A DNA stretch of 64,000 nt from Oscillospiraceae bacterium. Its GTDB lineage: Bacteria > Bacillota > Clostridia > Oscillospirales > CAG-272. The notes beneath the pieces are model-generated. The model saw only the letters and a program-made list of their open reading frames with translations. It did not search any database and was not told where the DNA came from. This document shows, piece after piece, positions 1,068-49,387 of the stretch. How positions within the stretch are numbered: the stretch's first letter is position 1; each line of letters opens with the position of its first letter. The stretch spans positions 55,883 to 119,882 of the forward strand of contig SVRT01000004.1 in NCBI GenBank assembly GCA_015064685.1, read 5' to 3'. A program made the position numbers and the translations under genes.

Positions 1068-1323
1068 TTTCAAATTTTGATTTATCGGGGAGGCGAACAA
1101 TCCCTCAGTCACGCGCAAGGCGTGACAGCTCCCTTTACACAAGGGAGCTTTGTTGGTGGATGTTCGTACGCATTATAGATGTGAAAACCCTTTAAAATTT
1201 AAAGGAAATTTCACTATATCCGCGTTCTCCACCTTTCAGGTAAAGCTCCCTTGTGTAAAGGGAGCTGGCGCGCCTCCGTGCGCGTCTGAGGGATTGTTCG
1301 CGTTCCCGCTAAACCCCAATTTA
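1068..1323 (-). repeat. type I nested palindromic intergenic element, copy 1 (centre subtype Ia)
   Basis: Termini TTTCAAATTTTGATTTATCGG ... TAAACCCCAATTT. Arms GGCGAACAATCCCTCAG / CTGAGGGATTGTTCG. Two AGCTCCCTT-TACAC-AAGGGAGCT hairpins. Variable modules GTCACGCGCAAGGCGTGAC (left) and GGCGCGCCTCCGTGCGCGTC (right). Confidence 0.9.
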
Positions 1324-1355
1324 TAAGCCTTTTCAGCACGAACACGGAGGTAATT

Positions 1356-3731
1356 ATGAGAAACATTTTAACGAACAACGAGATAATTTTCTGTCAGGAG
1401 ATAAGCGAGGACGTTACCGTCAAAGCCACGGGCGTCATCATCCAAAACTGCAAAATAAACGGTAACATCTACCTTGAAAACGCAACCAACTGCCTTGTGG
1501 CTCAGAACGAGATAAACGGCAATATCACCGCTAAGAACACATATAACTCGGTAATTCTTCTCAATAAGGCGCAAAATATCACCGCCGAGAGCAATACAAA
1601 TCTTTACGTAGTCGAAAACACCCTCTCGGGTACGCTCGTACTTAAAGATAATAACTACCTCTTAGCAGATGCAAATGCCTCCGGAGAAACAATATCCGAA
1701 AATAACGAAAACTTCAACGGTGACAATATCACCGCCGTCAATTCCCGTCTCCCCCACGGAGCTGACCTTGACTTGCTCCCGCACGCAAATAAGGAGCTCT
1801 TTGTCGGTATGCCGAGACGCGAATCTGTCAACGCCCACGATACCGACGGTAGCGAGAGCATCGAAAAATATATCATAAACCGCGCAAAAGGCGGCACTGT
1901 CATAGTTCCCCCCGGAGCGTACGAAGCTCCCGAGCCCGTAAGACTCAATGCAGATGCATCAGGCTCGACTATCTATGCCTTCGGCGCATTTATGGAGATG
2001 CTCCCCTACGGAAACGCCTTTGTCATAACCAACGGAAATAACATCACCGTCAAAGGACTCGTCATAGGCTACGCACAACAACCTTGCGGACAGGTAACGC
2101 TTATCGAGGAGATCGATAAATACACCTTCCTCGCTCTCCCCTACGCAGGCTCGATAGACGGATTTGGCAAGACCGACACAAAATTCTTCAGCGGCGGCTT
2201 TACCGACATTTTCGCCGAGGGCATGAACTACCCCTGGGGAACGCTTGGCGGAGCGTATGATATCGAAAAGCTCGAGAACGGACTCTATAAGATCAGGATA
2301 TGGGATAGCTATCCCTTCAAGGACGACATAAAGAAGGGCACAAGACTTGCAAACCGCCTCGTCGGACCCGATAAGATATCCATCCTTATGAATTACTCGA
2401 AAAATATTCTCTTCAAGGATATCTTCTTATACTGCCATTCCGCCTGCCTCGCTGCAGTAGCAGGAGGTGCGAGCGAGAATATCCACTTCTACCGCTGGTA
2501 CAACGGAAACGAGGCGGCTCGGATCATAGACAAGGCGACCTATGACCGCTACCGCGCGATAGAAGAAAAATACGGTGTCACAGGTGAGGTCTATATCGAC
2601 TCTCTCGGCAGATACCGCGGAGGCACTCCCCTCATCTGCTCCTCCGACGCGACTCACATCAACGGATGCCGCCGCGGAGTAGATGCCACCTCCTGCCTAT
2701 TTGAGTCAATGTGCGACGACGGATCGAACCAGCGCGCGTCAAGCTCGCGCCTTGCGGGAGTCACCGATAACGGCGACGGCACAACCACACTCTACTATAA
2801 GGGTAGCGTCTCGCAGATCTATTGCCTCAACTTCTTCAACGAAAATAACCCCCGCCCCACCCCAAGCAAGTGTCAACCCATATCGAAGGGCGACAGAGTG
2901 CTTATATATACGGGAACGGGAGTCACCTTCTGCGATACCGAAGCCCTCTCTGACGAGATCGCCGTGGAGGACTACGACTTTATCATCTCCCCCGAGGGCA
3001 AAACACCTCGCCACTACTACGACACGGTAAAGAAATTCACCGTCGCAACGAGCGCGCTCAATATGGCGGCGATAGAGGGCTTTGACCTCTCGGACAACCA
3101 CTACGATATGAAAAACAAGGTGCTTGTCGACAATCTCAGCCGCAACAGCGCAGGCTTCCATTTCGATAACGTGTTGGTCAGAAATACGCGCTCTCGCGGA
3201 ATTTTGGTCAAGACCGTAGGCGCGACTGTTGAACACTGTACCTTCCAAAATCTCGGACACACGGGAGTTCTCCTCTCGGTCGAGTTCGTCTGGGGCGAGA
3301 GCTCTGTCAGCCAGGATATCACGGTCAAAAAATGTCTTTTTGATAACGTGGGCTTTATAAATAAAGGTATCGCAAACAAGACCCTTGCCCCCGTAGCGAT
3401 CAAGGGACTTTCCTCCACAGTCGACGAAAAGTCGCTCCTCTACAAGAACATCCTCATCGAGGGCAATCGCTTTATAAACAATCAAAATAACTACGCCGTA
3501 ACGGTGAACTCCGCGCAGGACGTCCGTATCGTGAACAACGTCTTTGAGGAGTCTGTCGGAGAGTCCGAGGGATACTCGAGAATGGTCATCGACGTCGAGA
3601 CCTCTATGAATGTTGAGATCTCTGATAACAAATACTCCAAATATCTCGCCAATATTGAGGACGGCATCAGCGCGAAAAACTTTAAAAATATCCACGGCAC
3701 CGATATCACCCTCAACGACGACGTAGAATAA
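1356..3731 (+). CDS. parallel beta-helix repeat protein (probable glycoside hydrolase or polysaccharide lyase fold), paralog 2
   Basis: 791-aa ORF with a GGAGG RBS upstream of the ATG. N- and C-terminal blocks of NxxIxxN / IEGNRF beta-helix rungs. No signal peptide. Paralogous to 1-1058 and 6055-8595. Confidence 0.75.
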   Translation: MRNILTNNEIIFCQEISEDVTVKATGVIIQNCKINGNIYLENATNCLVAQNEINGNITAKNTYNSVILLNKAQNITAESNTNLYVVENTLSGTLVLKDNNYLLADANASGETISENNENFNGDNITAVNSRLPHGADLDLLPHANKELFVGMPRRESVNAHDTDGSESIEKYIINRAKGGTVIVPPGAYEAPEPVRLNADASGSTIYAFGAFMEMLPYGNAFVITNGNNITVKGLVIGYAQQPCGQVTLIEEIDKYTFLALPYAGSIDGFGKTDTKFFSGGFTDIFAEGMNYPWGTLGGAYDIEKLENGLYKIRIWDSYPFKDDIKKGTRLANRLVGPDKISILMNYSKNILFKDIFLYCHSACLAAVAGGASENIHFYRWYNGNEAARIIDKATYDRYRAIEEKYGVTGEVYIDSLGRYRGGTPLICSSDATHINGCRRGVDATSCLFESMCDDGSNQRASSSRLAGVTDNGDGTTTLYYKGSVSQIYCLNFFNENNPRPTPSKCQPISKGDRVLIYTGTGVTFCDTEALSDEIAVEDYDFIISPEGKTPRHYYDTVKKFTVATSALNMAAIEGFDLSDNHYDMKNKVLVDNLSRNSAGFHFDNVLVRNTRSRGILVKTVGATVEHCTFQNLGHTGVLLSVEFVWGESSVSQDITVKKCLFDNVGFINKGIANKTLAPVAIKGLSSTVDEKSLLYKNILIEGNRFINNQNNYAVTVNSAQDVRIVNNVFEESVGESEGYSRMVIDVETSMNVEISDNKYSKYLANIEDGISAKNFKNIHGTDITLNDDVE

Positions 3732-3740
3732 ACTCCTGCA

Positions 3741-3994
3741 TTTCAAATTTTGATTTATCGGGGAGACGAACAATCCCTCAGTCACGCGCAAGGCGTGACA
3801 GCTCCCTTTACACAAGGGAGCTTTGTTGGTGGATGTTCGTACGCATTATAGATGTGAAACCCTTTTAAATTTAAAGAAAATTTCACTATATCCACGTTCT
3901 CCACCTTTCAGGTAAAGCTCCCTTGTGTAAAGGGAGCTGGCGCGCCTCCGTGCGCGTCTGAGGGATTGTTCGCCTCCCCGCTAAACCGCAATTT
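3741..3994 (-). repeat. type I nested palindromic element, copy 2 (Ia)
   Basis: Near-identical to copy 1, including both variable modules. It follows an identical gene 3' end, consistent with a tandem segmental duplication. Confidence 0.9.
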
Positions 3995-4016: not shown

Positions 4017-6038
4017 ATGATAAGATACGAAAAAATCAGCATGCCTGCGGCATCGATGGGTGAAGTAAACCCACTTGCCGACATAGGAAACATTGAATAC
4101 ATCCACGCGGGATACGAGACAACGGACAACATTTCCCCCGCCGAGCGCGAGCGCATCGGCAAGGGAATGATCCATACGATCCTTCCCTACACCATCGAGG
4201 ACAACTTCGACAGGGTAAGAAAAATTCGCGAATTTGACGCGGCGATACTTGAAAACGAGTATTTACGCGCGACCTTCATTCCCTCTCTCGGCGCGCGTCT
4301 CTGGTCGCTCTACGACAAAGAGCAAAAGCGCGAATTACTCTACGTCAATCCCGTATTCCAGCCCGCCAATTTAGCGATAAGGAACGCGTGGTTTGCGGGC
4401 GGCGTTGAGTTCAACGTCGGAATAAAGGGACACAATCCGCTGACCTGCGACCCCTATTTCTCCCGTATCGCAAGGACCGCGGACGGGCAAGAGGTATTGC
4501 AGGCTTACGAATACGAGCGCATACGCGGTCTCGTCTTCGGCATTGAGGCGTATCTTCCCGAGGGCTCGAGGGTGCTTTATATCCGCGACACCGTCGAGAA
4601 CGTAAGCGGATCTGACACCTATTCATATTGGTGGTCAAACATTGCCGTTCCCGAAACTCCCGACACGCGCGTGATAGTTCCCACTACGCGCTCCTTCCTC
4701 TCGACCTACGACGAGGGACATTACGTCCTTGACAAGGTAGATATACCCTATATCGACGACGTCGACGTAAGCAGACCGACAAATCTTCACCGCTCTCTCG
4801 ATTTCTTCTATGAGATACCCGAGGAGTCGGACGAGCGCTGGGTAGCCGCAGTTGACGGCGAGGGCTACGGCTTGGCGCAGTTTTCCACCCGAGAGATGCT
4901 CGGCAGAAAAATGTTCCTCTGGGGACAGAGCGCGGGCGGCAGAAATTGGTGCGACTTCCTCTCTGACGGCTCGTCGAGCTACATCGAGATACAGGCAGGC
5001 AGAGCCTACACTCAGCTCGAGCATATACTTATGAAAAAGGGCGAGAGGTGGAGCTTTACCGAGGGATACACGGGAATATCCTGTGACAAAGCTCGCGCTC
5101 ACTCGCAAAATTGGAGCGAGGCGATAGACGAGGCGGCGGCTAATATCCGCAAAAACCTCGGTCGCGACGACCTCGACGCGGCTCTCCGCGACGTTTTCCC
5201 CACGGATTTCGTCTCCTACGATCTTCTTTCGCTCGGATCTCCCTTCGCGTACCTCGAGGAGCTTGAGCGAGGAGAAAAGCTATCGGATAAATTCGATTTT
5301 TACAAGGAATCGGCGAGCATCCTCTCGTTCGATTTTGAAAAGCTCGTACGTGACGGTTATCTTCCCGAGAAGATGCCCGATCAGTATCCTCTCTCCTACG
5401 TTTCTGGCAAGGAATGGTACGAAAGACTCAAAAACAGCACCGCCACCCCCAACGGAGAGCATTGGTACACGTATTATCACCTCGGTGTCGTCGCGTATCA
5501 GCTGAAGCTCGTCGACGAGGCGAGGGCGTATTTTGAAAGGTCAAATTCACTTTGCGAAAACGCCTGGAGCACGCGAAATCTCGCACTCCTCAGCCTTTAT
5601 GCAAAGGACACAAAGACCGCCGCGGACAAGATGACGCGCGCGATAGCTCTCTGTCCCGATTGCCCAAATCTCTACCCCGACGCGATGAAATGCTACCTTG
5701 CCCACAAGCAGTACGATGCGGCAGTGAGCTGCTTTGATAACGCCCCCGAAAATGTACGGGCTCGCGGCAGAATGCAGCTTCTCTGCGCCGTCGCTCTTAT
5801 CTCGCTCGGCGAATACGACAAGGCGTGCGCCTACGTTAATCCCGAATTCAGGATGGACGATATGCGCGAGGGCGAGATATCACTATCCCACGTCTGGGAG
5901 GACCTATATTGCGCTATTTTGCGCGAAAAACACCCCGAAATGAGCCAAAAAGAGCTTATTTCACTCCAAAAAGAAATTTATCCCCTGCCGCGTCACCTCG
6001 ATTTCCGTATGCATGACGAGGACGAGCAAGGGCTTTAA
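4017..6038 (+). CDS. DUF5107-like protein with C-terminal TPR-like repeats
   Basis: 673 aa. ILENEYLRATFIPSLGARLWSLYDK...WFAGGVEFNVGIKGHNP matches the DUF5107 pattern as I remember it. The C-terminal half is helical-repeat-like. It lies in a glycan-utilisation context. Confidence 0.6.
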   Translation: MIRYEKISMPAASMGEVNPLADIGNIEYIHAGYETTDNISPAERERIGKGMIHTILPYTIEDNFDRVRKIREFDAAILENEYLRATFIPSLGARLWSLYDKEQKRELLYVNPVFQPANLAIRNAWFAGGVEFNVGIKGHNPLTCDPYFSRIARTADGQEVLQAYEYERIRGLVFGIEAYLPEGSRVLYIRDTVENVSGSDTYSYWWSNIAVPETPDTRVIVPTTRSFLSTYDEGHYVLDKVDIPYIDDVDVSRPTNLHRSLDFFYEIPEESDERWVAAVDGEGYGLAQFSTREMLGRKMFLWGQSAGGRNWCDFLSDGSSSYIEIQAGRAYTQLEHILMKKGERWSFTEGYTGISCDKARAHSQNWSEAIDEAAANIRKNLGRDDLDAALRDVFPTDFVSYDLLSLGSPFAYLEELERGEKLSDKFDFYKESASILSFDFEKLVRDGYLPEKMPDQYPLSYVSGKEWYERLKNSTATPNGEHWYTYYHLGVVAYQLKLVDEARAYFERSNSLCENAWSTRNLALLSLYAKDTKTAADKMTRAIALCPDCPNLYPDAMKCYLAHKQYDAAVSCFDNAPENVRARGRMQLLCAVALISLGEYDKACAYVNPEFRMDDMREGEISLSHVWEDLYCAILREKHPEMSQKELISLQKEIYPLPRHLDFRMHDEDEQGL

Positions 6039-6054
6039 GGGAAAGGATAACATT

Positions 6055-8595
6055 ATGACAACACAAGATTTTGAGAGATTGGTCGGCACTCCTCACGTCA
6101 GCGAGCCGATAGTACTTGAAAACGGTATATACGACGGACACGGCGGCGTCCTCCACGCCGACGGCGGTATCATAATCGACCGCGCAGGCTCTATCCTCCG
6201 CAACGTCACTATATACGGCAGCATCGCCGTAACGGGCAGAAACGCCGTTATCCAGAACTGTAAGATCAAGGCAGACACCTACGCGATCTTCGCCTCGGGA
6301 TGCGACGTGGTGATCAGAAACAACGAGATCGACGCGCCGAGCGCTATTATGATCGAGCCGGGCGCTCAAAACATCCTCATCGCGCAGAATAATACCCACG
6401 GAGACGTAAAAATAGACGGCGCGCTCAACTGCTCGGTCGTTCTTAATAAAGCTAACAAGATAAGCGTTGAGTCCTCCACGAGCGTCTACCTCTCGGCGAA
6501 CGATTTCGAGGGCAAGGCTACGCTGAAGAATAACGACTACCTCCTCTGCGACAACAACGCGGCAAGCGTGTTCGACGTATCTGGCAACAAAAATACCAAC
6601 GGTGACAATATAACCGACGTAAACGCGCGCGCAGAGTACGGCGCAAACGAGGATATCCTCCCCCACACCAACAAGAACCTCTTTGCAGGTATGCCAAGAA
6701 AAAAGACAGTCCTTGACGCAGACTACGACGAGATGCTCGACTTCACAGAGTACATCAAGAGAGAAGCGACCTCAAACCACATAGTCATCATTCCCCCCGG
6801 CGCATACGCGGTCGACCGCGAGATCTGGCTCGGCGCGGAATGCTCGAACTGCAAGATCTATGCCTACGGCGTATTTGCCGAGAAGACAGAGTATGCCGGC
6901 ACCTATACGGTAAGCGGTGTTGAAAACCTCGAGCTTCACGGTATCACCACGGGCTACGCTCAGCAGTCCTGCGGTCAGGTACACGTGCTTGACGTGATCG
7001 ACGATTGCACCTTCCTCGCAATCACCGCGGCGGGTATGCTCGACGATTTCGGCAAGAGCGATACCTCGCGCTTCCACGCGGGATTTGTCAATATCTTCAG
7101 GGCAGGTCATATAGAGCCCTACGGCAGCTTCGGCGGTAACTACGAGATCGAAAAGCTCGACGGTGGCGTTATGAAATTCACTATCCCCGAGAACCACGAC
7201 AAGGTCGGCAAGGTATATAAGGGAGATATCCTTACCTGCCGTATGGCGCTTCCCTTCCTCCGCTCCATCTACTTCGAGAACTGCAAGAACGTGCTTGTTA
7301 AGGACACCGTGCTGTACGGTTATTCCTCCGCGCTCGCTATAGTTATGTCGGGTGACTCTCAGAACGTGCGTATGGTAAGATGGCACGACACGGCGAAATT
7401 CTCTCCTGCGATCGAGGAGGCAACATATTCAAAATATAAGGCTCTTGAGGAAAAATACGGCGTTGATCTCGAGGTATACATCGACGACAGAGGCCGTTGG
7501 CGCGGCTCGACTCCGAGACTCAGCTCTATGGACTCATCTCACATCACAGGCTCGCGCGAGGGTCTGTCCTGTATCAGCTGCATTATGGAAAATATGTGCG
7601 ACGACGCAACCAACCAGCGAGCTTCAAGTGCGCGCCTGCACTCCCTCACCGACCTTGGCGACGGCAGGACCTCGCTGAAATACAAGCACTGCGCGACCGA
7701 GGTGTATTTCAACATCGACAGAAAGCCCACCGCGCGCGGCTCTCTCTGCCCTCCATTCAAGGCAGGCGACCATATTCTCGCCTACGCGTCGAGCGGTAGA
7801 ACGCTATGTAACACCCACACTCTCTCCGCTACCGAAAAGGTCGGCGAGCTTGAGTATACCATCACGGCTCCATCTCACTCAAAGGATTATACCGCGGATA
7901 TATTTGAGATCATAGTTCCCACGGCGGACGTTGATTTCTCTGTCATTGAGGGACTCGATCTCGAGGACAATCACTACCGACTTGACAACAAGGTATTTGT
8001 TGATAACCTTGACAGAAACAGCGCAGGCTACCTCTTCGACAACGTGCTTATGCAGAACGCGAGAGCGCGCGGCGCACTCGTCAAGACGGTCGACGCGACG
8101 GTTCGTAATTGCACCTTCAGAAATCTCCTCCACTCCGCGGTAATGTTCTCCGCAGAGCCATCCTGGGGAGAAAGCTCGGTGCCGCAAAACGTAGCTATCG
8201 AAAAGTGCCTCTTCGATCATACGGGTTATACCAACGAGGACTACGGCAACCGCCGCTATACGCCTATATCTGTCTACGGTCAGGGTACTCTGCTCGACAG
8301 AGACGCGCTTCTCTACCGTGACCTTTCTGTCCGTGAGTGCAAGTTCAAGAATATCTATACCGAGGTCTTCGTCTATATCAACGCAGCTCAGAAGGTCACT
8401 ATCGAGAATAATATCTTCGAGAGAAGCGAGAACAGCCCCTATAAGGATTCTCCCCTCATCCTCGACGTAACCCTCGCAGCAGACGTCACCTTCAAGGGTA
8501 ATACCTACCCCTGCGACGCAAAAGCCGAGGACAGAATCACAGGTCAGAGATACCAAAACGTCTCATTCGAGGGCGTATTACTCTCTAAGGATTAA
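6055..8595 (+). CDS. parallel beta-helix repeat protein, paralog 3
   Basis: The ATG at 6055 (MTTQDFERL) is preceded by AAGGGAAAGGA. The ORF-track start at 6013 would overlap the upstream gene. It aligns along its length with ORF 1356-3731 (GYAQQSCGQV, MCDDATNQRASSARL, NARARGALVKT). Confidence 0.75.
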   Translation: MTTQDFERLVGTPHVSEPIVLENGIYDGHGGVLHADGGIIIDRAGSILRNVTIYGSIAVTGRNAVIQNCKIKADTYAIFASGCDVVIRNNEIDAPSAIMIEPGAQNILIAQNNTHGDVKIDGALNCSVVLNKANKISVESSTSVYLSANDFEGKATLKNNDYLLCDNNAASVFDVSGNKNTNGDNITDVNARAEYGANEDILPHTNKNLFAGMPRKKTVLDADYDEMLDFTEYIKREATSNHIVIIPPGAYAVDREIWLGAECSNCKIYAYGVFAEKTEYAGTYTVSGVENLELHGITTGYAQQSCGQVHVLDVIDDCTFLAITAAGMLDDFGKSDTSRFHAGFVNIFRAGHIEPYGSFGGNYEIEKLDGGVMKFTIPENHDKVGKVYKGDILTCRMALPFLRSIYFENCKNVLVKDTVLYGYSSALAIVMSGDSQNVRMVRWHDTAKFSPAIEEATYSKYKALEEKYGVDLEVYIDDRGRWRGSTPRLSSMDSSHITGSREGLSCISCIMENMCDDATNQRASSARLHSLTDLGDGRTSLKYKHCATEVYFNIDRKPTARGSLCPPFKAGDHILAYASSGRTLCNTHTLSATEKVGELEYTITAPSHSKDYTADIFEIIVPTADVDFSVIEGLDLEDNHYRLDNKVFVDNLDRNSAGYLFDNVLMQNARARGALVKTVDATVRNCTFRNLLHSAVMFSAEPSWGESSVPQNVAIEKCLFDHTGYTNEDYGNRRYTPISVYGQGTLLDRDALLYRDLSVRECKFKNIYTEVFVYINAAQKVTIENNIFERSENSPYKDSPLILDVTLAADVTFKGNTYPCDAKAEDRITGQRYQNVSFEGVLLSKD

Positions 8596-8596: not shown

Positions 8597-8849
8597 AAAT
8601 TGCGGTTTATGGGAGAGGCGAACAATCCCTCAGTCTCGCATTCGCTCGACAGCTCCCTTTACACAAGGGAGCTTTACCTCAAAGGTGAAAAACGAGGATG
8701 TAGTGACGTTTTTCCTTCAAATTAAAGGGTTTTTATGTCTACAAAGCGCACAAACATCCACCAATAAAGCTCCCTTGTGTAAAGGGAGCTGTCACGCCTT
8801 GTGCGTGACTGAGGGATTGTTCATCTCACCGATAAATCAAAATTTGAAA
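8597..8849 (+). repeat. type I nested palindromic element, copy 3 (centre intermediate between Ia and Ib)
   Basis: AAATTGCGGTTTATGGGAGAGGCGAACAATCCCTCAG ... CTGAGGGATTGTTCATCTCACCGATAAATCAAAATTTGAAA. Modules GTCTCGCATTCGCTCGAC (left) and GTCACGCCTTGTGCGTGAC (right). Confidence 0.9.
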
Positions 8850-8855: not shown

Positions 8856-9122
8856 AAATTGCGGTTTATCGGTGGGATAATAATTACAAACGCATTTAAA
8901 ATGTTTCACGGCTATAAGTCAAACGACACCAAATAACCGTAGGGACCGACGTCCTCGGCGGTCCGCTTCGATACGATTGTTTCTTTTCAGCCATAAGGGT
9001 TTTGTAGGCGTTTGCTTTGCGGACCGCCGAGGACGTCGGTCCCTACGGCGCAAAGCGTACCGTGGAGTAAATTTATAGCCGTGAAATTCAATTTAAACAG
9101 TTCGCTAAATCAAAATTATAAA
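8856..9122 (+). repeat. type III element: same termini, different interior
   Basis: AAATTGCGGTTTATCGG ... GCTAAATCAAAATTATAAA. The interior carries a perfect 30-bp inverted repeat, CCGTAGGGACCGACGTCCTCGGCGGTCCGC (8937-8966) / GCGGACCGCCGAGGACGTCGGTCCCTACGG (9019-9048), plus an outer IR TTTCACGGCTATAA / TTATAGCCGTGAAA. Confidence 0.85.
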
Positions 9123-9128: not shown

Positions 9129-9324
9129 AAATTGCGGTTTAGCGAACGGTCTACACTGTAGGGCGGGGGCTTGCTCCCGCCGTGAAAACCTTTTAAATTC
9201 AACGAAACGGCGGGAGCAAGCCCCCGCCCTACAGTGCGAAGCGTATTGAAAGTTTTTGCGGAGCTTTTTTCAAAAAGCGACACGCGTCCCCCGTCTCCCC
9301 GCACCGACAAATCAAAATTTGAAA
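9129..9324 (+). repeat. type IV element: same termini, another interior
   Basis: AAATTGCGGTTTAGCG ... CCGACAAATCAAAATTTGAAA. Perfect 28-bp IR CTGTAGGGCGGGGGCTTGCTCCCGCCGT (9156-9183) / its reverse complement (9207-9234). The right part contains GAAAGTTTTTG + GCTTTTTTCAAAAAGC, the motif also found upstream of the GRE and activase genes. Confidence 0.85.
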
Positions 9325-10286: not shown

Positions 10287-10539
10287 AAATTGGGGTTTAT
10301 GGGAGAGGCGAACAATCCCTCAGTCTCGCATTCGCTCGACAGCTCCCTTTACACAAGGGAGCTTTACCTGAAAGGTGGAGAACGTGGATATAGTGAAATT
10401 TTCTTTAAATTTAAAAGGTTTTCACACCTATAATGCGTACGAACATCCACCAACAAAGCTCCCTTGTGTAAAGGGAGCTGTCACGCCTTGTGCGTGACTG
10501 AGGGATTGTTCGAACTCACCGATAAATCAAAATTTGAAA
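10287..10539 (+). repeat. type I nested palindromic element, copy 6 (Ia)
   Basis: AAATTGGGGTTTATGGGAGAGGCGAACAATCCCTCAG ... CTGAGGGATTGTTCGAACTCACCGATAAATCAAAATTTGAAA. It ends 18 nt before the GH2 ATG. Confidence 0.9.
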
Positions 10540-12866: not shown

Positions 12867-13120
12867 TTTCAAATTTTGATTTGGCGGTGTGTTCGAACAA
12901 TCCCTCAGTCTCGCATTCGCTCGACAGCTTCCTTTACACAAGGGAGCTTCACCTAAAAGGTTGAGAACGAGGCTGCAGTGAGTTTCACTTTATCCGTAAA
13001 GGATTTCACGGCTACAAAGCGCACAAACGTCCACCAACAAAGCTCCCTTGTGTAAAGGGAGCTGGCGCGCCTCCGTGCGCGTCTGAGGGATTGTTCGCGT
13101 CCCCTATAAACCGCAATTTA
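12867..13120 (-). repeat. type I nested palindromic element, copy 7 (Ib; interior inverted relative to termini compared with copies 1 and 2)
   Basis: TTTCAAATTTTGATTTGGCGG ... TATAAACCGCAATTT. The centre reads TCACCTAAAAGGTTGAG...CCACCAACAA, opposite to copy 1, which has the same terminus orientation. Confidence 0.9.
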
Positions 13121-14878: not shown

Positions 14879-15236
14879 AAAAAAAATCACGGGATATGGC
14901 GTTGTGTTCCTAAGGACACAACGCCAACTCTATTCGCCTACGGCGAGTTCTATTGCATCGCAGTGATATTCGGCCCCAGCCGAGTGGTATTCGCTACGCG
15001 AGTTTTGAAGGCGAATAGAATATAACTGCTCTGCCTGCAGAGCAATATCACTTTTGCGAAGCGAAAATATCACGCTGTTGCAAAGCGACAGCATATCACT
15101 AAAAACTATCAGGAAGAGCGCACTTACTCACCACCGAAAGTGGTAGTGCTATACAAAAGAGCCGATACGGAATCAAATCCATATCGGCTTTTTTACTGTC
15201 CTTTAGCACCCGTAGCTATTTCCCCGTGATTTTTTC
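14879..15236. repeat. composite hairpin-array region bounded by AAAAAAATCACGGG / CCCCGTGATTTTTT
   Basis: Five plus-strand units of 7-mer (GGGATAT, ACTCTAT, GTTCTAT, GTGATAT, GTGGTAT) + short hairpin at 14891-15001. They face four minus-strand units (GTGATAT x3, GTTATAT + hairpin) at 15020-15099. Further hairpins follow. Confidence 0.75.
15161..15194. terminator. intrinsic terminator between convergent GH35 and pfkA
   Basis: GCCGATA...TATCGGC stem followed by TTTTTT on the plus strand. On the minus strand the same stem is followed by TCTTTTGT. Confidence 0.6.
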
Positions 15237-21957: not shown

Positions 21958-22202
21958 TTAATTGCAATTTAACGAGGAGACAATCCCTCAGTCGCCTATG
22001 GCGACAGCTCCCTTTACACAAGGGAGCTTTGTTGGTGGACGTTTGTGCGCTTTGTAGCCGTGAAATCATTTACGGATAAAGTGAAACTCACTACAGCCTC
22101 GTTCTCAACCTTTGAGGTGAAGCTCCCTTGTGTAAAGGGAGCTGTCGAGCGAATGCGAGACTGAGGGATTGTTCGAACGCCCCGACAAATCAAAATTTAA
22201 AG
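21958..22202 (+). repeat. type I nested palindromic element, copy 8 (Ib, degenerate left terminus)
   Basis: TAATTGCAATTTAACGAGGAGACAATCCCTCAG, module GTCGCCTATGGCGAC, hairpin AGCTCCCTTTACACAAGGGAGCT, centre TTGTTGGTGGACG..., right module GTCGAGCGAATGCGAGAC, then ...GACAAATCAAAATTTAAA. Confidence 0.85.
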
Positions 22203-22208
22203 GTCAGA

Positions 22209-22628
22209 TTATTTTGCCGCTTCGCCAAGCGAGCGGGCAACGGCGGCTTCGAAGAATTCGCGCCAATGCTGATCCTCGGCGCTCTCCGCTTTAGATATAG
22301 AGTAGCTTGGATTAGTTTTATTTTGTTTAGATATAGCCCAAGCCCCCCTTGAAGCCCCCTTGGTGGCACCCGATTGATCTTCGGTCTGATTTTTCTTGAT
22401 GCTCGCGCCAATAGAACCGTACGCGCTGTACTCGAGCCGACGGTCGATGCAAGGGAAGATCATCGTTGCGACGGGTTTGGCTTTTCCCTTGAATTCCATA
22501 GGCTTTTCGCCATATATCTGATACCTGTATACCGCCCAAAGTATCCTCTTAAAATCGCTTGCGCTGAGGTCTTGCATAGCCTCAAACCATTCGTTGTAGA
22601 TGAGAACGCCCTTATGTACTTGTCCCAT
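22209..22628 (-). CDS. small hypothetical protein, DUF6291-like (phage/mobile-element associated family)
   Basis: 139 aa. LIYNEWFEAMQDLSASDFKRILWAVYRYQIYGEKPMEFKGKAKPVATMIFPCIDRRLEY resembles the DUF6291 N-terminal pattern as I recall it. It is an isolated gene bracketed by two repeat elements. Confidence 0.4.
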   Translation of the reverse strand: MGQVHKGVLIYNEWFEAMQDLSASDFKRILWAVYRYQIYGEKPMEFKGKAKPVATMIFPCIDRRLEYSAYGSIGASIKKNQTEDQSGATKGASRGAWAISKQNKTNPSYSISKAESAEDQHWREFFEAAVARSLGEAAK

Positions 22629-22834
22629 TTTTTACTCCTTTTTTAAAAAAAATTATATGAATTTTTTGTGACCACGAGGTAATTCGAGTGCAATTTGATT
22701 GCAACCCGAGGTCAATTGCGATCAGTTCCGCAACAACATTATAGCACATTTGTTCTGTTTTGTCGGCTCCAAAATGGAAAAAATTTTTTTTCATCCTCGA
22801 AATGGGGAAAAAATTTGTAATCTTTCAAGTATAT

Positions 22835-23092
22835 AAATTGGGGTTTTACGAATAGCCTTCTCCAGCGGAGAAGGGGGACCACCGAAGGTGGTGGATGAGG
22901 AGGTCGCCATTAGGATGTATTTCACGGGAGCGGTGTGGATTTTGTCTTTTCGCGCAAAGATTCTTATGCATCGGAACAAGGTCTTTACACGGACGCGAAG
23001 CCCACAAAAGGGCGACCTCCTCATCCACCGCTAACGCGGTCCCCCTTCCCCGCTGGGGAAGGCTAAAGGCACCGATAAATCAAAATTTGAAA
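22835..23092 (+). repeat. type II element: same termini, interior built from CCTTCYCC/GGRGAAGG and GGTGGATGAGGAGGTCGCC modules
   Basis: AAATTGGGGTTTTACGAA ... CACCGATAAATCAAAATTTGAAA. Arms carry sub-hairpins CCTTCTCCAGCGGAGAAGG, ACCACCGAAGGTGGT / ACCGCTAACGCGGT and CCTTCCCCGCTGGGGAAGG. Confidence 0.9.
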
Positions 23093-23125
23093 CAAAAAAA
23101 GGGCTGACGGTGTCAGCCCTTTTGG
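23093..23125 (-). terminator. intrinsic terminator of the vWA operon
   Basis: GGGCTGAC-GGT-GTCAGCCC with a T-run on the minus strand (complement of AAAAAAA at 23094-23100). The same stem sequence recurs at 27861-27881. Confidence 0.8.
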
Positions 23126-23132
23126 GTGTAGA

Positions 23133-24953: not shown

Positions 24954-24981
24954 AACAAAACCATCCTTTCGAAATTTAATT

Positions 24982-26571: not shown

Positions 26572-26601
26572 ATGACTTTTTTTGATGTTCATAAATTGCA
26601 A

Positions 26602-26630: not shown

Positions 26631-26667
26631 TACACTAAGCTCACGGCAGACACGCGGAGGTGAAAAT

Positions 26668-27567: not shown

Positions 27568-27572
27568 AAAAT

Positions 27573-27602
27573 AAGGAAGAGATGAAAGTCTCTTCCTTTT
27601 TT
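27573..27602 (+). terminator. intrinsic terminator
   Basis: GGAAGAGA-TGAAAG-TCTCTTCC followed by TTTTTT. Confidence 0.8.
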
Positions 27603-27606
27603 GATG

Positions 27607-27858
27607 AATTGCGGTTTATCGTGGAGGCGAACAATCCCTCAGACGCGCACGGAGGCGCGCCAGCTCCCTTTACACAAGGGAGCTTTGTTGGTGGACGTTT
27701 GTGCGCTTTGTAGCCGTGAAACCCTTTACGGATAAAGTGAAACTCACTGCAGCCTCGTTCTCAACCTTTTAGGTGAAGCTCCCTTGTGTAAAGGGAGCTG
27801 TCGAGCGAATGCGAGACTGAGGGATTGTTCGAACTCACCGATAAATCAAAATTTGAAA
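27607..27858 (+). repeat. type I nested palindromic element, copy 10 (Ib)
   Basis: AATTGCGGTTTATCGTGGAGGCGAACAATCCCTCAG, module GACGCGCACGGAGGCGCGCC, centre TTGTTGGTGGACG..., right module GTCGAGCGAATGCGAGAC, then ...CCGATAAATCAAAATTTGAAA. Confidence 0.9.
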
Positions 27859-27890
27859 AAGGGGCTGACGGTGTCAGCCCCTTTGGGTTT
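27856..27890 (-). terminator. intrinsic terminator of metG
   Basis: GGGGCTGAC-GGT-GTCAGCCCC with a T-run on the minus strand. It is a near-copy of the terminator at 23093-23125. Confidence 0.8.
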
Positions 27891-27895
27891 AATAA

Positions 27896-29878
27896 TTATC
27901 TTACTCTTTCACCGAGAGGTGTATCCTCTGCGAGGAATACGACGCGTACGGTCTCCTCGCCCGATGCGAGGATCATTCCGTTCGACTCGATTCCGCAGAG
28001 CGTTGCGGGCTTAAGGTTAGCCACGACGATGATCTTCTTTCCGATGAGATCCTCGGGCTGATACCACTTTGCGATACCGGAAACTACCTGTCTTTCCTCG
28101 TATCCGAGGTCGATCTTGAGCTTGAGGAGCTTCTTTGCCTTCGGCACCTTCTCGCACTCGATTATCTTCGCGGTACGAAGCTCAACGCCCATAAAGTCCT
28201 CGATGCCTATAAGCGCGCATCCCTCGGGCTTTTCAGGCTTCTCCTCTGCCTTTGCCGCAGCCTCAGCCGCCGCCTTCTTCGCCGCCATCTCTGCTTCAAG
28301 CTCAGAGAGCATCTTTGCCTCGTCGATACGCGCGAACATAACGCGAGAATCGCCTACGACACTTCCTGCCTCGATCTTACCGAAGCACTTTACGCATCCG
28401 ACCGTCGTGTAGTCGGTCTTATCAGTACCGATGGTTGCGAGTATCTCCTCTGCCGTTGCGGGAATGAAGGGCTTGAGCAGCACAGCACCCCAACGGATCG
28501 CCTCAAGGAGGTTATAGAGGACGGTGCCGAGTCTCTCTCTCTGCGCTTCGTCCTTCGCGAGCGTCCAGGGAGTAGTCTCGTCTATATACTTATTCGCTCT
28601 TGAGAGCATCTCGAATACACACTCGAGCGCGTCGGCGATTCTGAACGCATCCATATTCTTGACAACGCCATCGTAAGCCTTTGCGCAAGCCGCCTTAAGC
28701 TCCTCGTCGAGAGCTTCGGGAGCTGTGGGCGCCTGAACGACCTTATCAAAATACTTCTTCTGCATATCAAGCGTACGCTTAACGAGGTTTCCGAGGTTAT
28801 TTACAAGGTCGGTGTTATATCTCTTGATAACCGTCTCGTATGTGATGCTACCGTCGGATGCGAAGGGCATCTCGGAGAGCGCGTAGTATCTTACGCCGTC
28901 GATTCCGAAGCGGTCCGCTAGCTCGTCGGCATAGATCACGTTGCCGCGCGACTTGGACATCTTATCCGCGCCGAAGTTAAACCAGGGATGACCGAATATC
29001 TGCTTAGGAAGCGGAATATCGAGAGCCATCAAGAAGATAGGCCAATAGATAGTGTGGAAGCGGAGGATGTCCTTACCGATAACGTGGACGTCCGCAGGCC
29101 AATATTTCTTGAACTTCTCGCTCTGCTCCTCAAACGACTTATCGGGGTCGTAACCGATAGCCGTGATGTAGTTGGTGAGCGCGTCGAGCCATACGTAGGT
29201 TACGTGACGGGGATCGAAGTCAACGGGGATACCCCACGAGAAGGAGGTACGCGAAACACAGAGGTCCTGGAGTCCGCCCTCGACCTTGAGGAAGTTGTTG
29301 ACCATCTCCTTCTTTCTCGACTCGGGCTGAATGAACTCGGGATTTGCTTCGATGTGAGCCATAAGTCTGTCGGCGTACTTGCTCATCTTGAAGAAGTAAG
29401 CCTCCTCCTCAGCCTTCGCGACGGGTCTGCCGCAGTCGGGACACTTGCCGCCCTCTGCCTGAGTCTCTGTGAAGAAGGACTCGCAGGGGGTACAGTACCA
29501 GCCCTCGTACTTTCCTTTATATATATCGCCCTGCTCGTAGAATTTCTTGAATATCTTCTGAACTACCGCCTCGTGATAATCGTCGGTCGTGCGGATAAAG
29601 TGATCGTAATTTACGTTCATCTTGTCCCAAAGCTCACGGATCTCGCCCGCTACGCCGTCAACGTATGCCTTAGGCGTGATACCTGCCGCCTTTGCAAGCT
29701 CCTCGATCTTCTGTCCGTGCTCGTCGGTACCCGTACACATAAATACGTCGTATCCCATCTCTCTCTTATAGCGAGCCATAGCGTCTGTTGCTATTGCCTC
29801 GTAGGTGTTTCCGAAGTGGGGCTTTTTCGACGCGTACGCGATAGCCGTTGTGATGTAATACTTCTGTTTGTCTGCCAT
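27896..29878 (-). CDS. metG: methionine--tRNA ligase with C-terminal tRNA-binding (Trbp111/EMAP-like) domain
   Basis: YITTAIAYASKKPHFGNTYE (HIGH-type motif), KMSKSRGN, a CxxC zinc knuckle (CTPC...CPDC) and a C-terminal GIEDFMGVELRTAKI OB-fold. Confidence 0.95.
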   Translation of the reverse strand: MADKQKYYITTAIAYASKKPHFGNTYEAIATDAMARYKREMGYDVFMCTGTDEHGQKIEELAKAAGITPKAYVDGVAGEIRELWDKMNVNYDHFIRTTDDYHEAVVQKIFKKFYEQGDIYKGKYEGWYCTPCESFFTETQAEGGKCPDCGRPVAKAEEEAYFFKMSKYADRLMAHIEANPEFIQPESRKKEMVNNFLKVEGGLQDLCVSRTSFSWGIPVDFDPRHVTYVWLDALTNYITAIGYDPDKSFEEQSEKFKKYWPADVHVIGKDILRFHTIYWPIFLMALDIPLPKQIFGHPWFNFGADKMSKSRGNVIYADELADRFGIDGVRYYALSEMPFASDGSITYETVIKRYNTDLVNNLGNLVKRTLDMQKKYFDKVVQAPTAPEALDEELKAACAKAYDGVVKNMDAFRIADALECVFEMLSRANKYIDETTPWTLAKDEAQRERLGTVLYNLLEAIRWGAVLLKPFIPATAEEILATIGTDKTDYTTVGCVKCFGKIEAGSVVGDSRVMFARIDEAKMLSELEAEMAAKKAAAEAAAKAEEKPEKPEGCALIGIEDFMGVELRTAKIIECEKVPKAKKLLKLKIDLGYEERQVVSGIAKWYQPEDLIGKKIIVVANLKPATLCGIESNGMILASGEETVRVVFLAEDTPLGERVR

Positions 29879-31160: not shown

Positions 31161-31412
31161 AAATTGGGGTTTATGGGAGAGGCGAACAATCCCTCAGACG
31201 CGCACGGAGGCGCGCCAGCTCCCTTTACACAAGGGAGCTTTACCTGAATGGTGGAGAACGCGGATATAGTGAAGTTTTCTTTAAATTTAAAAGGTTTTCA
31301 CATCTATAAAGCGTACGAACATCCACCAACAAGCTCCCTTGTGTAAAGGGAGCTGTCGAGCGAATGCGAGACTGAGGGATTGTTCGAACTCACTGACAAA
31401 TCAAAATTTGAA
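31161..31412 (+). repeat. type I nested palindromic element, copy 11 (Ia centre with a different module pair)
   Basis: AAATTGGGGTTTATGGGAGAGGCGAACAATCCCTCAG, module GACGCGCACGGAGGCGCGCC, centre TTACCTGAATGG..., right module GTCGAGCGAATGCGAGAC, then ...TGACAAATCAAAATTTGAA. Confidence 0.9.
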
Positions 31413-31626
31413 GCTATTCTGACGTAAAATCACCTTTTTTATGTTATTTGTAAATAAAAGTATTACCTTGTAAAAATAGGATATATTGGATATTTTTAGG
31501 CGGTGTTTGTTAATTAAATGTCACAGATTCTTGACATTTTTTTGTCAGTGGCAATTTTTTATAAAATGCCCCAAAATTCGACGCTCCGATTTAGTGCAAT
31601 TTTCACATAGGGGTTTTAAAAAACTA

Positions 31627-37251: not shown

Positions 37252-37273
37252 TTTTTGTAAGACAAAAATTAAC

Positions 37274-37382
37274 GTGAAATTTGTCCTTTGGACAAGTGAA
37301 ATATTGCTACGCAATGTGAAATACGCCTTCGGCGTGTGAAATGTCGCTTGCATACAAGCTACATGAATATTTGCGAACGCAA
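37274..37382 (+). repeat. array of five GTGAAAT + variable hairpin units between two shell genes
   Basis: GTGAAAT-TTGTCCtttGGACAA, GTGAAAT-ATTGCtacGCAAT, GTGAAAT-ACGCCttcGGCGT, GTGAAAT-GTCGCTTGcataCAAGCTAC, ATGAATAT-TTGCgaacGCAA. It is preceded by the hairpin TTAATTTTTGT-aag-ACAAAAATTAA (37248-37272). Confidence 0.85.
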
Positions 37383-46557: not shown

Positions 46558-46608
46558 GGCGACCTCCACAGCCTATGCAAGCGGTCCCCCTTCCCCGCTG
46601 GGGAAGGC
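46558..46608. repeat. fragment of a type II element arm
   Basis: GGCGACCTCC...GCGGTCCCCCTTCCCCGCTGGGGAAGGC matches the right arm of 22835-23092. No termini are present. Confidence 0.7.
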
Positions 46609-47810: not shown

Positions 47811-47840
47811 AAAACGGAGAGATTTTTCTCTCCGTTTTTG
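47811..47840 (+). terminator. intrinsic terminator
   Basis: AAAA-CGGAGAGA-TTTTT-CTCTCCG-TTTTTG. An identical copy lies at 49085-49114. Confidence 0.85.
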
Positions 47841-47846
47841 TTTGTC

Positions 47847-47898
47847 AAATTGCGGTTTACGGGGATTGTTCGTCTCCCCACTAAATCAAAATTTGAAA
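47847..47898 (+). repeat. 52-bp solo element: termini only, interior missing
   Basis: AAATTGCGGTTTACGGGG-ATTGTTCG-TCTCCCCACTAAATCAAAATTTGAAA. It retains only the last 8 nt (ATTGTTCG) of the type I arm. Confidence 0.8.
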
Positions 47899-49079: not shown

Positions 49080-49084
49080 ACGCA

Positions 49085-49114
49085 AAAACGGAGAGATTTT
49101 TCTCTCCGTTTTTG
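49085..49114 (+). terminator. intrinsic terminator (copy of 47811-47840)
   Basis: AAAAA-CGGAGAGA-TTTTT-CTCTCCG-TTTTTG. Confidence 0.85.
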
Positions 49115-49120
49115 TTTGTC

Positions 49121-49387
49121 AAATTGGGGTTTGTCAGTGTGATAAGCCTTCCCCAGCGGGGAAGGGGGACCGCGTTAGCGGTGGATGAGGAGGTCGCCCT
49201 TTCAAGGGCTTTTCGTCTGTAAAAAAGCTTTGTTTCGTTGCAAAAGAATCCTTATGCCACAAAACAAAATCCACGATACACCCGTGGCGCGCGTCCTAAT
49301 GGCGACCTCCTCATCCACCACCTTCGGTGGTCCCCCTTCTCCGCTGGAGAAGGCTATTCGCAACAGTTAGACAAATCAAAATTTGAA
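49121..49387 (+). repeat. type II element, interior inverted relative to copy at 22835-23092
   Basis: AAATTGGGGTTTGTCAG ... TTAGACAAATCAAAATTTGAA. The CCTTCCCC/ACCGCGTTAGCGGT arm is on the left here and on the right in the other copy. The centre is its reverse complement. Confidence 0.9.

Follow-up and report, generated by a model that had tools for sequence, protein, structure and literature searches.

A palindromic intergenic repeat family with conserved ends and exchangeable interiors in uncultured Eubacteriales/Oscillospiraceae

Copies of the repeat in the window

The 64-kb stretch of DNA analysed here, referred to as the window, contains 14 copies and one arm fragment of a palindromic repeat. 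The genes flanking elements of this family are mostly housekeeping genes, such as those for MetRS, ackA, a holB-like protein and homoserine dehydrogenase. Reading of the sequences recovered all copies and the fragment listed in the initial annotation, which had also described them as strictly intergenic and as occupying about one twentieth of the window. Both descriptions are accurate, since 100 % of the copies and the fragment lie between genes and the 14 copies sum to 3,363 bp, which is 5.25 % (~5.3 %) of the window. A BLAST search of every copy against the window returned no additional copy or fragment. The count of fourteen, however, needs a qualification. Positions 979-1322 match 3652-3994 in a segmental duplication that covers copies 1068 and 3741 together with the 3' end of a gene, and there are therefore 13 independent sites rather than 14.

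The duplicated type I copies lie on the reverse strand at 1068-1323 (right end 1068-1083, left end 1310-1322) and 3741-3994, the latter following the gene whose 3' end was duplicated with it. A tandem trio on the forward strand starts with a type I copy at 8597-8849, which is separated by the 6-bp spacer GTGTAC from a type II copy at 8856-9122, and ends with a type III copy at 9129-9324. Two pairs of type I copies are near-identical despite unrelated flanks. The first, with 96 % identity, consists of the forward copies at 10287-10539, whose right end is 19 nt upstream of the ATG of a GH2 gene, and 26319-26571. The second, with 96.8 % identity, consists of a reverse-strand copy at 12867-13120 with a flipped centre (Y orientation) and a forward copy at 27606-27858, which also has a Y centre and lies between two convergent terminators. 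The remaining full-length copies are all on the forward strand, namely type I copies at 21958-22202 (Y centre) and 31161-31413 and type IV copies at 22835-23092 and 49121-49387, the last two sharing 68 % identity. The 52-bp mini-element at 47847-47898 (forward) retains both ends and a remnant of a type I right arm and is an internal-deletion derivative of type I. Its left flank is identical over 36 bp to that of copy 49121. The type IV right-arm fragment at 46558-46608 (forward) lacks the ends and is located upstream of the real ATG (46622) of a ParA-like gene. Over the left-to-right pairs of the window and of other loci, copy length ranges from 51 to 485 bp, with a mode near 252-270 bp.

Conserved ends and variable interiors

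The left end AAATTGSGGTTTA was matched 13 times in the window with at most one mismatch, compared to 0.14 matches expected by chance, and the right end AAATCAAAATTTGAAA 15 times with at most two mismatches, compared to 0.04. Of these right-end matches, 14 pair with a left end and read AAATCAAAATTTGAA. The other one, at 62369, is a lone, unpaired chance match. The initial annotation had assigned the same termini to all copies, which is true for 13 left and 14 right ends; the left end is degenerate at 21958 (TTAATTGCAATTTA) and reads GAATTG at 27606. Together, the ends form an imperfect terminal inverted repeat, in which AAATTGCGGTTTATCGGGGAG and the reverse-complemented right end AAATTTTGATTTATCGGGGAG agree at 18 of 21 positions. 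This repeat is conserved in 41 copies and is longer than the minimum of 10-15 bp used for MITEs. The consensus is (A-Y)AAATTGSGGTTTA(TCGGGGAG) for the left end and (CTCCCCGA)YAAATCAAAATTTGAA(A) for the right end, and the two differ at the same positions in every copy. Information content falls sharply at both boundaries of the 41 copies, and homology between near-identical copies ends exactly at the conserved ends, with unrelated flanks beyond. In agreement with the initial annotation, no target-site duplication was found, as no direct repeat with k = 2-9 was present at offsets from -3 to +7 in the 41 copies. Neither GTTRRRY nor RYYYAAC occurs at the element boundaries.

The layered inner structure that had been described is present, with CGAACAATCCCTCAG and CTGAGGGATTGTTCG occurring eight times each in the window, AGCTCCCTTTACACAAGGGAGCT eight times and its complement nine times. 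The four types of interior had been described as unrelated, but they are not wholly so; TRTAGCCGTGAAA, for example, is common to the type I centre and the outer stem of type II. Type I copies are mosaics of shuffled hairpin modules with centres in both orientations. Their hairpin modules belong to a far wider repeat family of gut Clostridia that lacks these ends: the B module has exact matches in 30 IMG/VR contigs of 56-65 % G+C, where the ends have none. The ends were also absent from plasmids and from 756 kb of contigs from more distant Clostridia. The clade-specific feature is the pair of ends, here called the shell, and not the interior, or payload. About 45 left-to-right pairs included no empty shell. 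Even the shortest two hold remnants of type I or type IV, and such mini-elements are collapse products of these types.

The interiors of types II and III are perfect inverted pairs of GTAG-tagged REP hairpins that resemble REPINs. In type II, the hairpin GTAGGGACCGACGTCCTCGGCGGTCC at 8939-8964 (forward) is paired with its inverted partner at 9021-9046 (reverse) across a spacer of 56 nt, and in type III the pair at 9158-9183 (forward) and 9207-9232 (reverse) has a spacer of 23 nt. Types I and IV do not carry the GTAG tag. A RAYT-like ORF was found at positions 7280-7804 of locus L008 in JAZRRX01, a MAG that carries the repeat family. It was matched by the NCBIfam model REP_Tyr_transpos with E = 1.3e-15 and 57.5 bits, below the cut-off of 80, and by Pfam Y1_Tnp with 22.2 bits, below the cut-off of 23. 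REPs inside this gene match the payload of element L007 of the same MAG, and the homologous gene at L148 contains the type II REP of the window at 26/26 bases. In both genes, two REPs lie in frame within the coding sequence instead of flanking it as in a REPtron, and they encode VGTGVLDCP or VGTDVLGGP, and GQSGTPVPT or GPSRTPVPT. No shell surrounds either gene. Judged from these matches, the RAYT-like gene family of these bacteria appears to carry the same REPs as the type II and III payloads.

Dispersal, payload turnover and rearrangement

The same ends, enclosing many different palindromic interiors, were found at 19 loci in eight other MAGs of uncultured Eubacteriales/Oscillospiraceae. Near-identical and hence recent copies also occur at unrelated loci outside the window, such as L013 and L023 (99.6 % identity), both in one MAG. 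As the initial annotation had suggested, the family is hence dispersed and not a product of local duplication. Since whole units including both ends were copied to unrelated loci with 96-99.6 % identity, the shell moves with its payload. Contigs often end at the elements, and tandem arrays with spacers of 4-7 bp are present.

Orthologous sites show a different kind of change. Downstream of the MetRS gene, identically placed ends enclose unrelated interiors in five lineages, and ends are kept across lineages with 93-95 % MetRS protein identity while the interiors differ completely. This conservation of position could also mean that the ends have a host function. The right end of copy 27606 is orthologous with elements of other types at L028, L029, L032 and L034. 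Copy 21958 is missing at the orthologous site in L028, and copy 31161 is missing in L028, L029 and L034. In L033, with 90.5 % nucleotide identity, the left half and centre of copy 31161 are kept, but one module is swapped and a 71-bp palindromic insertion is present. The comparison of filled and empty sites proposed in the initial annotation thus showed that copies are missing in some relatives, but it did not fix the insertion point, as near-identical strains yielded no clean empty site and the intergenic DNA of the nearest relatives without a copy is too diverged.

Ends that persist while their interiors change would be expected if the ends were a host motif already scattered through the intergenic DNA, for instance a palindrome bound by a protein or a signal next to a terminator, and unrelated hairpin transposons repeatedly inserted into its centre, with only the payloads being mobile. 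The far wider distribution of the payload modules, the insertion within an existing copy directly seen in L033, and the occurrence of the REP pairs of the window only inside shells are in line with this explanation. The lack of unoccupied shells and the copying of whole units with both ends speak against it, and we consider it unlikely.

Closely related strains also differ in the arrangement of the ends. L161 is 99.8 % identical to window positions 22849-28910 and has a right-right version of the type IV payload, while L151 is 99.6 % identical to positions 22081-23065 and has a left-left version. In both, other genes follow beyond the payload, and the unit common to these chimeras is the interior 22849-23065 of copy 22835. 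Identity to the window in these near-identical strains ends at the border between ends and interior. Such chimeras with changed flanking genes imply inversion. Together with module shuffling and flipped centres, they support the proposal of the initial annotation that the repeat is a recombination substrate, and on the strength of these comparisons the element appears to be a site of chromosome rearrangement.

Some of these observations are also compatible with a cassette-type, site-specific recombination system similar to integron attC sites, in which the ends would be recombinase core sites, the interior would matter only as structure and the enclosed genes would be cassettes. As in attC sites and the repeats of Vibrio cholerae (VCR), short conserved ends enclose a variable, imperfectly palindromic interior between genes, and some genes bracketed by two sites vary between strains. 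In the window, an esterase gene lies between the directly oriented copies 26319 and 27606, where L028 and L034 have a single element, and a DUF6291 gene between two elements is missing in L028 and encodes an identical protein in a second genomic context. The tandem arrays and the identity breaks at the interior border would fit as well. However, neither the roughly 40 larger ORFs scanned in the window nor the surroundings of copies at other loci contained an integrase or recombinase domain, a GTTRRRY-type core is absent, the elements point in mixed directions with respect to both genes and other copies, and the flanked genes are mostly housekeeping genes. The elements are also two to four times longer than attC/VCR sites, and inversion between two payload copies is the simpler explanation for the second DUF6291 context and for an MFS context. 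A cassette system is therefore quite improbable.

Single strands of the elements are predicted to fold far better than shuffled sequences, with z = -13.1 for type I, -8.5 for type II and -8.9 for type IV. Many copies are located 1-40 nt from stop or start codons, some of them inside apparent operons, and internal hairpins followed by T-runs register as terminator-like. These properties could point to an RNA-level function, in which structured modules between cistrons or in 3' UTRs would be kept because they serve the stabilisation, termination or processing of transcripts, their spread being secondary. Under RNA rules, 29 of 41 copies, which are not independent of each other, fold better as the left-to-right strand (mean 4.2 kcal/mol), and this suggests G-U pairs on one strand; the asymmetry is in part due to one G-T pair fixed in the ends. 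Against such a function, the elements are oriented at random to their neighbouring genes and to transcription (11, 8, 10 and 8 over four classes), several copies between convergent genes are located past the terminators of those genes, and orthologous sites do not retain the sequence of the interior. The Rfam search proposed earlier matched no family on the elements, with only sub-threshold miRNA-hairpin matches even at permissive thresholds, and nothing on related elements in seven loci. An RNA function as the primary explanation has a low probability, similar to that of the cassette system. The sole Rfam match in the whole window was Gut-1, which is located away from the elements.

A probably mobilised shell and its relation to known repeats

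We estimate a probability of roughly 60 % that the repeats are a non-autonomous, trans-mobilised family of MITE/REPIN-like palindromes, each with a constant shell around a payload that can be exchanged, and that they also act as recombination substrate. The non-autonomous character suggested by the initial annotation holds as far as visible: no Pfam transposase or recombinase domain was detected in roughly 40 larger ORFs of the window, no transposase adjoins a copy in any of 168 loci, no left-to-right end pair with a spacing of 600-5000 bp occurs in the window and in loci bearing the family, and none of the loci examined has a gene enclosed by the two ends. The payload of hairpin modules would fold the element into one long stem or cruciform, and new copies would arise at other AT-rich sites between genes, with no duplication of the target. 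For their spread, they would depend on an enzyme able to recognise either the shell or the folded single strand, with its gene elsewhere in the genome. The likeliest candidate, we infer, is an HUH/Y1 enzyme of the IS200/RAYT type or another non-DDE enzyme. Payload replacement would probably result from recombination of dispersed copies with one another, with arms flipping the centre between them, modules being swapped by gene conversion, and small hairpin units nesting inside, including GTAG REP pairs with their cognate RAYT-like gene. Palindromes may then collapse into mini-elements, and recombination between copies may invert chromosome segments.

Among the closest known systems are REPIN/REP-RAYT systems (Nunvar 2010; Bertels and Rainey 2011, PMC3116915), including GTAG REPs (Di Nocera 2013, PMC3733652). 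Shared features are non-coding intergenic hairpin doublets in high copy number without target duplication, persistence at orthologous sites, inverted GTAG hairpin pairs as type II and III payloads, and a RAYT-like gene bearing the same REP. Mobilisation of REPs is thought to be due to a single-copy Y1/HUH enzyme encoded elsewhere, as may be the case here. In contrast to REPINs, the elements are about 250 bp long and wrapped in additional AT-rich, asymmetric ends, a shell that the REPIN definition does not include. Types I and IV lack the GTAG tag, and the RAYT-like genes differ from RAYTs by in-frame REPs and by scores under the curated cut-off. TIRYT-associated families, which are linked to Y1 transposases and not to DDE enzymes, are moderately abundant, long terminal-inverted-repeat elements, some of them self-complementary and clustered (PMC3733652), as are those described here. 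Unlike in TIRYT families, where repeats flank a transposase gene, no gene flanked by the ends was found, and the common TIRYT motif GGGGWSAS is matched only partially (GGGGAGGC and similar).

Classical bacterial MITEs such as Correia/NEMIS, ERIC, RUP and Nezha (reviewed in PMC10969869) are likewise intergenic elements of 50-500 bp that have terminal inverted repeats and long hairpin potential, are dispersed in many copies, and include variants with internal deletions and copies that carry insertions. The 14 copies per 64 kb and the copies in eight other MAGs agree with the small, non-coding, multi-copy nature of MITEs. The repeat deviates from them by the lack of the 2-10 bp target-site duplication, by ends that differ from each other identically in every copy, and by one end pair enclosing many unrelated but always palindromic interiors. 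A parent IS of the repeat is not known. BOX elements of Streptococcus pneumoniae and BIMEs of E. coli share with it the conserved terminal modules, internal modules that vary in number and kind, and a mosaic composition differing between loci and strains, but not the concentric palindromes with nested layers. By eye, the repeat does not resemble the consensus sequences of Correia, ERIC, RUP, BOX and BIME, which is a lead rather than a test. A full-text literature search for the element's own sequence strings gave no match. The earlier statement that it matches no named family holds for Rfam and this full-text search but not for the interiors of types II and III, which are GTAG REP pairs, and the repeat family as such is apparently unnamed.

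A further-reaching reading is that the shell is a new kind of mobile unit, a portable nest whose short, asymmetric ends would be recognised by an undescribed non-DDE enzyme, with no target duplication and an exchangeable palindromic payload. The payload could change its orientation and the ends could re-sort into left-right, left-left and right-right pairs, shuffling non-coding cassettes between hundreds of sites and inverting the chromosome. REPINs, whose unusual RAYT-like gene has its REPs within the reading frame, may then be among the payloads, along with five or more further hairpin families. We regard this reading as doubtful.

The host lineage, uncultured Oscillospiraceae-type gut and rumen bacteria, is known only from fragmented MAGs, and a 250-bp repeat that makes up about 5 % of the sequence and lies at contig ends explains part of this fragmentation. 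The elements mark synteny breaks between strains and are a naturally occurring example of how recombination within palindromes flips payloads and re-pairs ends. Their two-level organisation of conserved ends and interchangeable palindromic payload is outside the usual description of MITEs and REPINs. They also connect GTAG REP doublets with a family of RAYT-like genes in Clostridia, whereas the 2013 survey of GTAG REPs listed hosts only among Proteobacteria, Cyanobacteria, Chloroflexi and the PVC group and none among Firmicutes (PMC3733652). If the mobilising enzyme is new, the repeats would represent a new transposition system; if it is not, they would be a well-documented new family of a known kind.

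Architecture and distribution of the shell

The fourteen copies placed in the window by the initial annotation were recovered when the sequence was read at every listed position, and a mechanical repeat finder gave the same families. A BLAST search of all copies against the window returned no match beyond the positions listed. The left end AAATTGSGGTTTA occurs 13 times in the window with at most one mismatch (0.14 expected), and the right end AAATCAAAATTTGAAA 15 times with at most two (0.04 expected). Of the 15 right ends, 14 have a left-end partner at a distance of 51-267 bp; the remaining one, at 62369, is an unpaired chance match. The left ends of two copies are degenerate. The two ends form an imperfect inverted repeat with 18 of 21 positions matching and fixed differences at positions 6, 7 and 9. 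Between them, the layers follow the order previously described: CGAACAATCCCTCAG with its complement comes first, followed by a short hairpin that varies, the 23-nt hairpin (AGCTCCCTT-TACAC-AAGGGAGCT) with its mirror, and in the middle a centre of roughly 95 bp. Single strands fold strongly compared with shuffled sequence (z = -13.1 for type I, -8.5 for type II and -8.9 for type IV). The copies total 3,363 bp or 5.25 % of the window, in agreement with the estimated one twentieth, and all of them are strictly intergenic, as had been claimed; the arm fragment at 46558-46608 is also intergenic and precedes a ParA-like gene, whose true start is at 46622. The 52-bp copy derives from type I by deletion.

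The copies starting at 1068 and 3741 belong to one segmental duplication that takes in the end of a paralogous beta-helix gene. Three paralogous genes lie at 60-1058, 1356-3731 and 6013-8595, each followed by an element 1-10 nt past the stop codon; a Pfam right-handed beta-helix domain was found in two of the three, and the elements after two of the three fall within one common duplication. A second, unrelated repeat of 88 bp is present at the end of the window (63756-63843 and 63913-64000, 97 % identical, 157 bp apart). It also occurs between aldolase and aldehyde dehydrogenase genes in two loci of relatives (L028, 15685-15816; L029, 9798-9884, reverse-complemented to the window orientation), while the corresponding site in the window holds no copy.

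The gene content of the window, with glycoside hydrolases, a glycyl-radical microcompartment operon, MetRS and ackA, places the host among saccharolytic anaerobes. An exact-pattern scan for the left end, 215-245 nt and the right end across one genome per species (185,579 species) yielded 21 stretches, 19 of which come from eight MAGs of rumen or faecal origin that bear the label Eubacteriales or Oscillospiraceae. The other two, from an archaeon and a member of the Bacteroidales, have non-palindromic interiors and look like chance matches. The eight MAGs carry further interiors between the same ends, every one palindromic, and this establishes a dispersed family rather than a local duplication. 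Additional copies in the fetched loci are 51-485 bp long with a mode near 250-270 bp, and head-to-tail arrays with 4-7 bp between copies are frequent.

The shell is specific to a narrow clade, since its ends are essentially absent from more distant Clostridia and absent from IMG/VR and plasmids. Only two single matches were found in 756 kb of distant contigs, which came from a metagenome scan anchored on PFK, consist mostly of distant relatives (51-85 % protein identity) and serve as a negative control only. The plasmid collection gave no element match, and matches in the phage collection were confined to short modules in faecal contigs that are unverified. The type I modules, in turn, are part of a far broader family: exact copies of the 22-nt B module together with its CAG flanks are found in 30 IMG/VR contigs of 56-65 % G+C, and multi-hairpin palindromes of a similar kind that lack the AT-rich ends are present in human faecal contigs. 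A half-element of type I-like sequence, namely the left half with the B module and the next hairpin, was also observed in the same context in many related phage contigs from IMG/VR (L119, L123-L125, L128, L130, L132, L134, L136, L142, L143 and L147). The flanks there look like coding sequences on either side, and an in-frame intragenic position is suspected.

Dispersal, boundaries and insertion sites

Whole units have been copied recently to unrelated loci. Two units within one MAG (L013 and L023) are 99.6 % identical, and in the window the copies at 27606 and 12867 share 96.8 % and those at 10287 and 26319 share 96 %. In every near-identical pair, homology ceases at the element ends. This copying of whole units including both ends weakens the idea that the ends are a host motif serving as landing pad. 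Across 41 copies, the information content drops from about 2 bits to about 0.2 bits right after TTTGAA at the right boundary, and at the left boundary it falls two bases before AAATTG with a weak A-Y preference remaining. No target-site duplication was found in these copies at any boundary offset or length, consistent with the initial impression that none was obvious.

The copies sit a few to a few tens of bases from stop codons, start codons or gene terminators, in random orientation relative to the neighbouring genes (11, 8, 10 and 8 for the four classes), which argues against a strand-specific role as RNA and weakens an RNA-level function as an explanation. Rfam searches at gathering and permissive thresholds returned no family matching the elements or related modules. 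As a separate observation, a Gut-1 RNA (Rfam RF01706) lies at 37272-37347 (+) between paralogous BMC shell genes within the microcompartment operon (79.3 bits, gathering score 50), with a weaker, sub-threshold match at 14925-14995 (+) just downstream of a GH35 gene (37.5 bits) and a third in the related MAG locus L015 at 5425-5494 (+) (40.6 bits). A promoter across the tandem junctions was considered and rejected, as TTGAAA, a 17-nt spacer and TATCGG provide a poor -10 element.

Metagenome contigs frequently terminate inside or beside elements, as expected for a high-copy repeat. No strain-level empty sites were found: contigs with identical MetRS, esterase and DUF6291 proteins all retain the same insertions, and the nearest relatives without copies have about 90 % nucleotide identity or less, with intergenic DNA too diverged for this use. 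The idea of an AATT/AAATTT target, with the outermost AAATT as its duplicate, was dropped as unproven. An empty site in L028 (site A) has GTAAATT at the junction, which fits, but at site C the AAATTTTGA-like motif stands apart as a sequence of its own that is retained roughly 20 nt away, and the tandem-copy junctions are also inconsistent with it.

Recombination and payload turnover

The proposal that the elements are a recombination substrate is supported by mosaics, centre flips and chimeras bracketed by two ends of one kind. Type I copies are mosaics in which four variable hairpins share one slot in differing combinations. Their centre, in two versions about 75 % alike, occurs in both orientations relative to the ends, which is the expected product of recombination between the inverted arms flanking it.

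Payload turnover at the same site is seen at orthologous loci obtained via MetRS homologues. In the window, L028, L029, L032 and L034/L035, lineages with 93-95 % MetRS protein identity, a right end follows closely on the MetRS terminator at one and the same position, and the interiors are unrelated: type I in the window, a type IV collapsed to 69 bp in L028, one further type in L029 and L032, and a 424-bp element in L034. A sigma-factor promoter abuts the left end in the window, L028 and L034. In L033, which is 90.5 % identical to the window at the nucleotide level, the orthologous copy upstream of the amidohydrolase gene retains the left end, arm, hairpin and centre, with one module swapped and the right hairpin interrupted by a 71-bp palindrome. 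At the right end of this copy, synteny with the window is lost. L033 (98 % MetRS protein identity) has its amidohydrolase-MetRS block in a different neighbourhood, near tsaD, rex, dnaD-like and dnaI-like genes, and on the other side of this block synteny is lost at the position of the window element 27606-27858. An esterase gene flanked by two elements in the window corresponds to a single element in L028 and L034, and a DUF6291 gene flanked likewise to about 15 bp in L028.

Rearrangement is also evident between strains. L161 matches window positions 22849-28910 at 99.8 % identity and continues to the left of 22849 into a right-type end and an MFS gene. For L151 and L153 the identity is 99.6 % over 22081-23065, past which they have a left-type end and HAD/RsmF genes. 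The payload at 22849-23065 is therefore bracketed by left and right ends in the window, two right ends in L161 and two left ends in L151. This pattern is the expected outcome of an inversion between two copies in direct orientation whose payloads face opposite ways, and it implies a strain-level inversion. The model predicts, for the window strain, a second type IV copy lying between the MFS gene and the HAD/RsmF genes, its payload reversed with respect to the ends. Among all fetched loci, there are 84 left-right pairs versus five same-end chimeras, and all five stem from this one event.

Several features of the flanking sequence were observed in addition. A 9-bp direct repeat, GATTATTTT, at 22207-22215 and 23131-23139 brackets the DUF6291 gene, a type IV element and a terminator, with each copy providing the stop codon of one gene (DUF6291 and a VWA protein); it may stem from a separate insertion of about 920 bp, either as a target duplication or as microhomology. 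The terminator hairpin GGGCTGACGGTGTCAGCCC is common to 23101-23119 and 27862-27880, just outside the right ends of a type IV and a type I element, and in L034 the two orthologous terminators are more alike to each other than to those of the window. Judged from this likeness, concerted evolution may extend beyond the element ends. In front of their left ends, the mini type I element and a type IV element have the same 36-bp flank, AAAACGGAGAGATTTTTCTCTCCGTTTTTGTTTGTC, which includes a terminator (47811-47846 and 49085-49120).

REP payloads, RAYT-like genes and mobilisation

Types II and III each hold a perfect inverted pair of GTAG-tagged hairpins, the signature of REPs in a REPIN arrangement (PMC3733652, PMC3116915). 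A tblastn search of the fetched loci with IS200 TnpA and E. coli RAYT sequences gave a single match, L008:7280-7804, from a MAG in which the shell family is present. This ORF has HUH (NHIHLV) and tyrosine (SRSYDHVIRD) motifs and matches the NCBIfam REP-associated tyrosine transposase with E = 1.3e-15 and 57.5 bits, below the curated cut-off of 80, and Pfam Y1_Tnp with 22.2 bits (cut-off 23). Its coding sequence contains two inverted GTAG REPs in frame, which nearly equal the REP pair forming the payload of an element in the same MAG (L007).

The payload REPs are matched by a RAYT-like gene family that is large in Ruminococcaceae/Oscillospiraceae MAGs (2,796 matches at E <= 1e-10). The REP-encoded peptides VGTGVLDCP and GQSRTPVPT are conserved across it and tandemly repeated in some members. 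In this Y1/HUH family from Oscillospiraceae/Clostridia MAGs, two in-frame inverted GTAG REP hairpins were also seen to flank the HUH motif on both sides, and some members have two to three tandem copies of the peptides (family examples are the proteins P0149, P0170, P0174, P0175 and P0177). The homologous protein P0252 (L148:149-658) encodes VGTDVLGGP from GTAGGGACCGACGTCCTCGGCGGTCC, in which 26 of 26 bases equal the type II REP of the window. Along with the agreement between L007 and L008 within one genome, this match would predict, as a general rule, that genic and dispersed REPs co-vary. Full-text literature searches returned no paper for the REP and REP-peptide strings or for the element sequence strings, and a keyword search only general MITE and REP papers.

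A Pfam scan of about 40 ORFs detected no transposase, integrase or recombinase domain in the window, as the initial annotation had stated, and the genes adjoining orphan ends in L016, L017 and L019 are all housekeeping. A cassette-type site-specific system is likewise weakened by the missing recombinase; compared with attC sites, the family has no integrase, core site or co-orientation. The evidence best supports a palindromic family that is non-autonomous and mobilised in trans, in which the shell is conserved and the payload can be exchanged. An enzyme encoded elsewhere in the genome would recognise the ends or the folded strand. The leading, though tentative, candidate is a single-strand HUH/Y1-type enzyme because of the absence of target duplication, the asymmetric ends, the hairpin-rich elements and the RAYT-like family in these bacteria. 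The payload would be replaced by ectopic gene conversion or recombination, perhaps preceded by breakage of the long palindromes.

Such a family works like REPINs and MITEs but falls outside the definition of each; unlike MITEs, it shows no target duplication, and a partner IS was not found. For a specialist, the unexpected aspects are that the shell is separable from its payload, that left-left and right-right chimeras arise between near-identical strains, and that RAYT-like genes carry their own REPs in frame.
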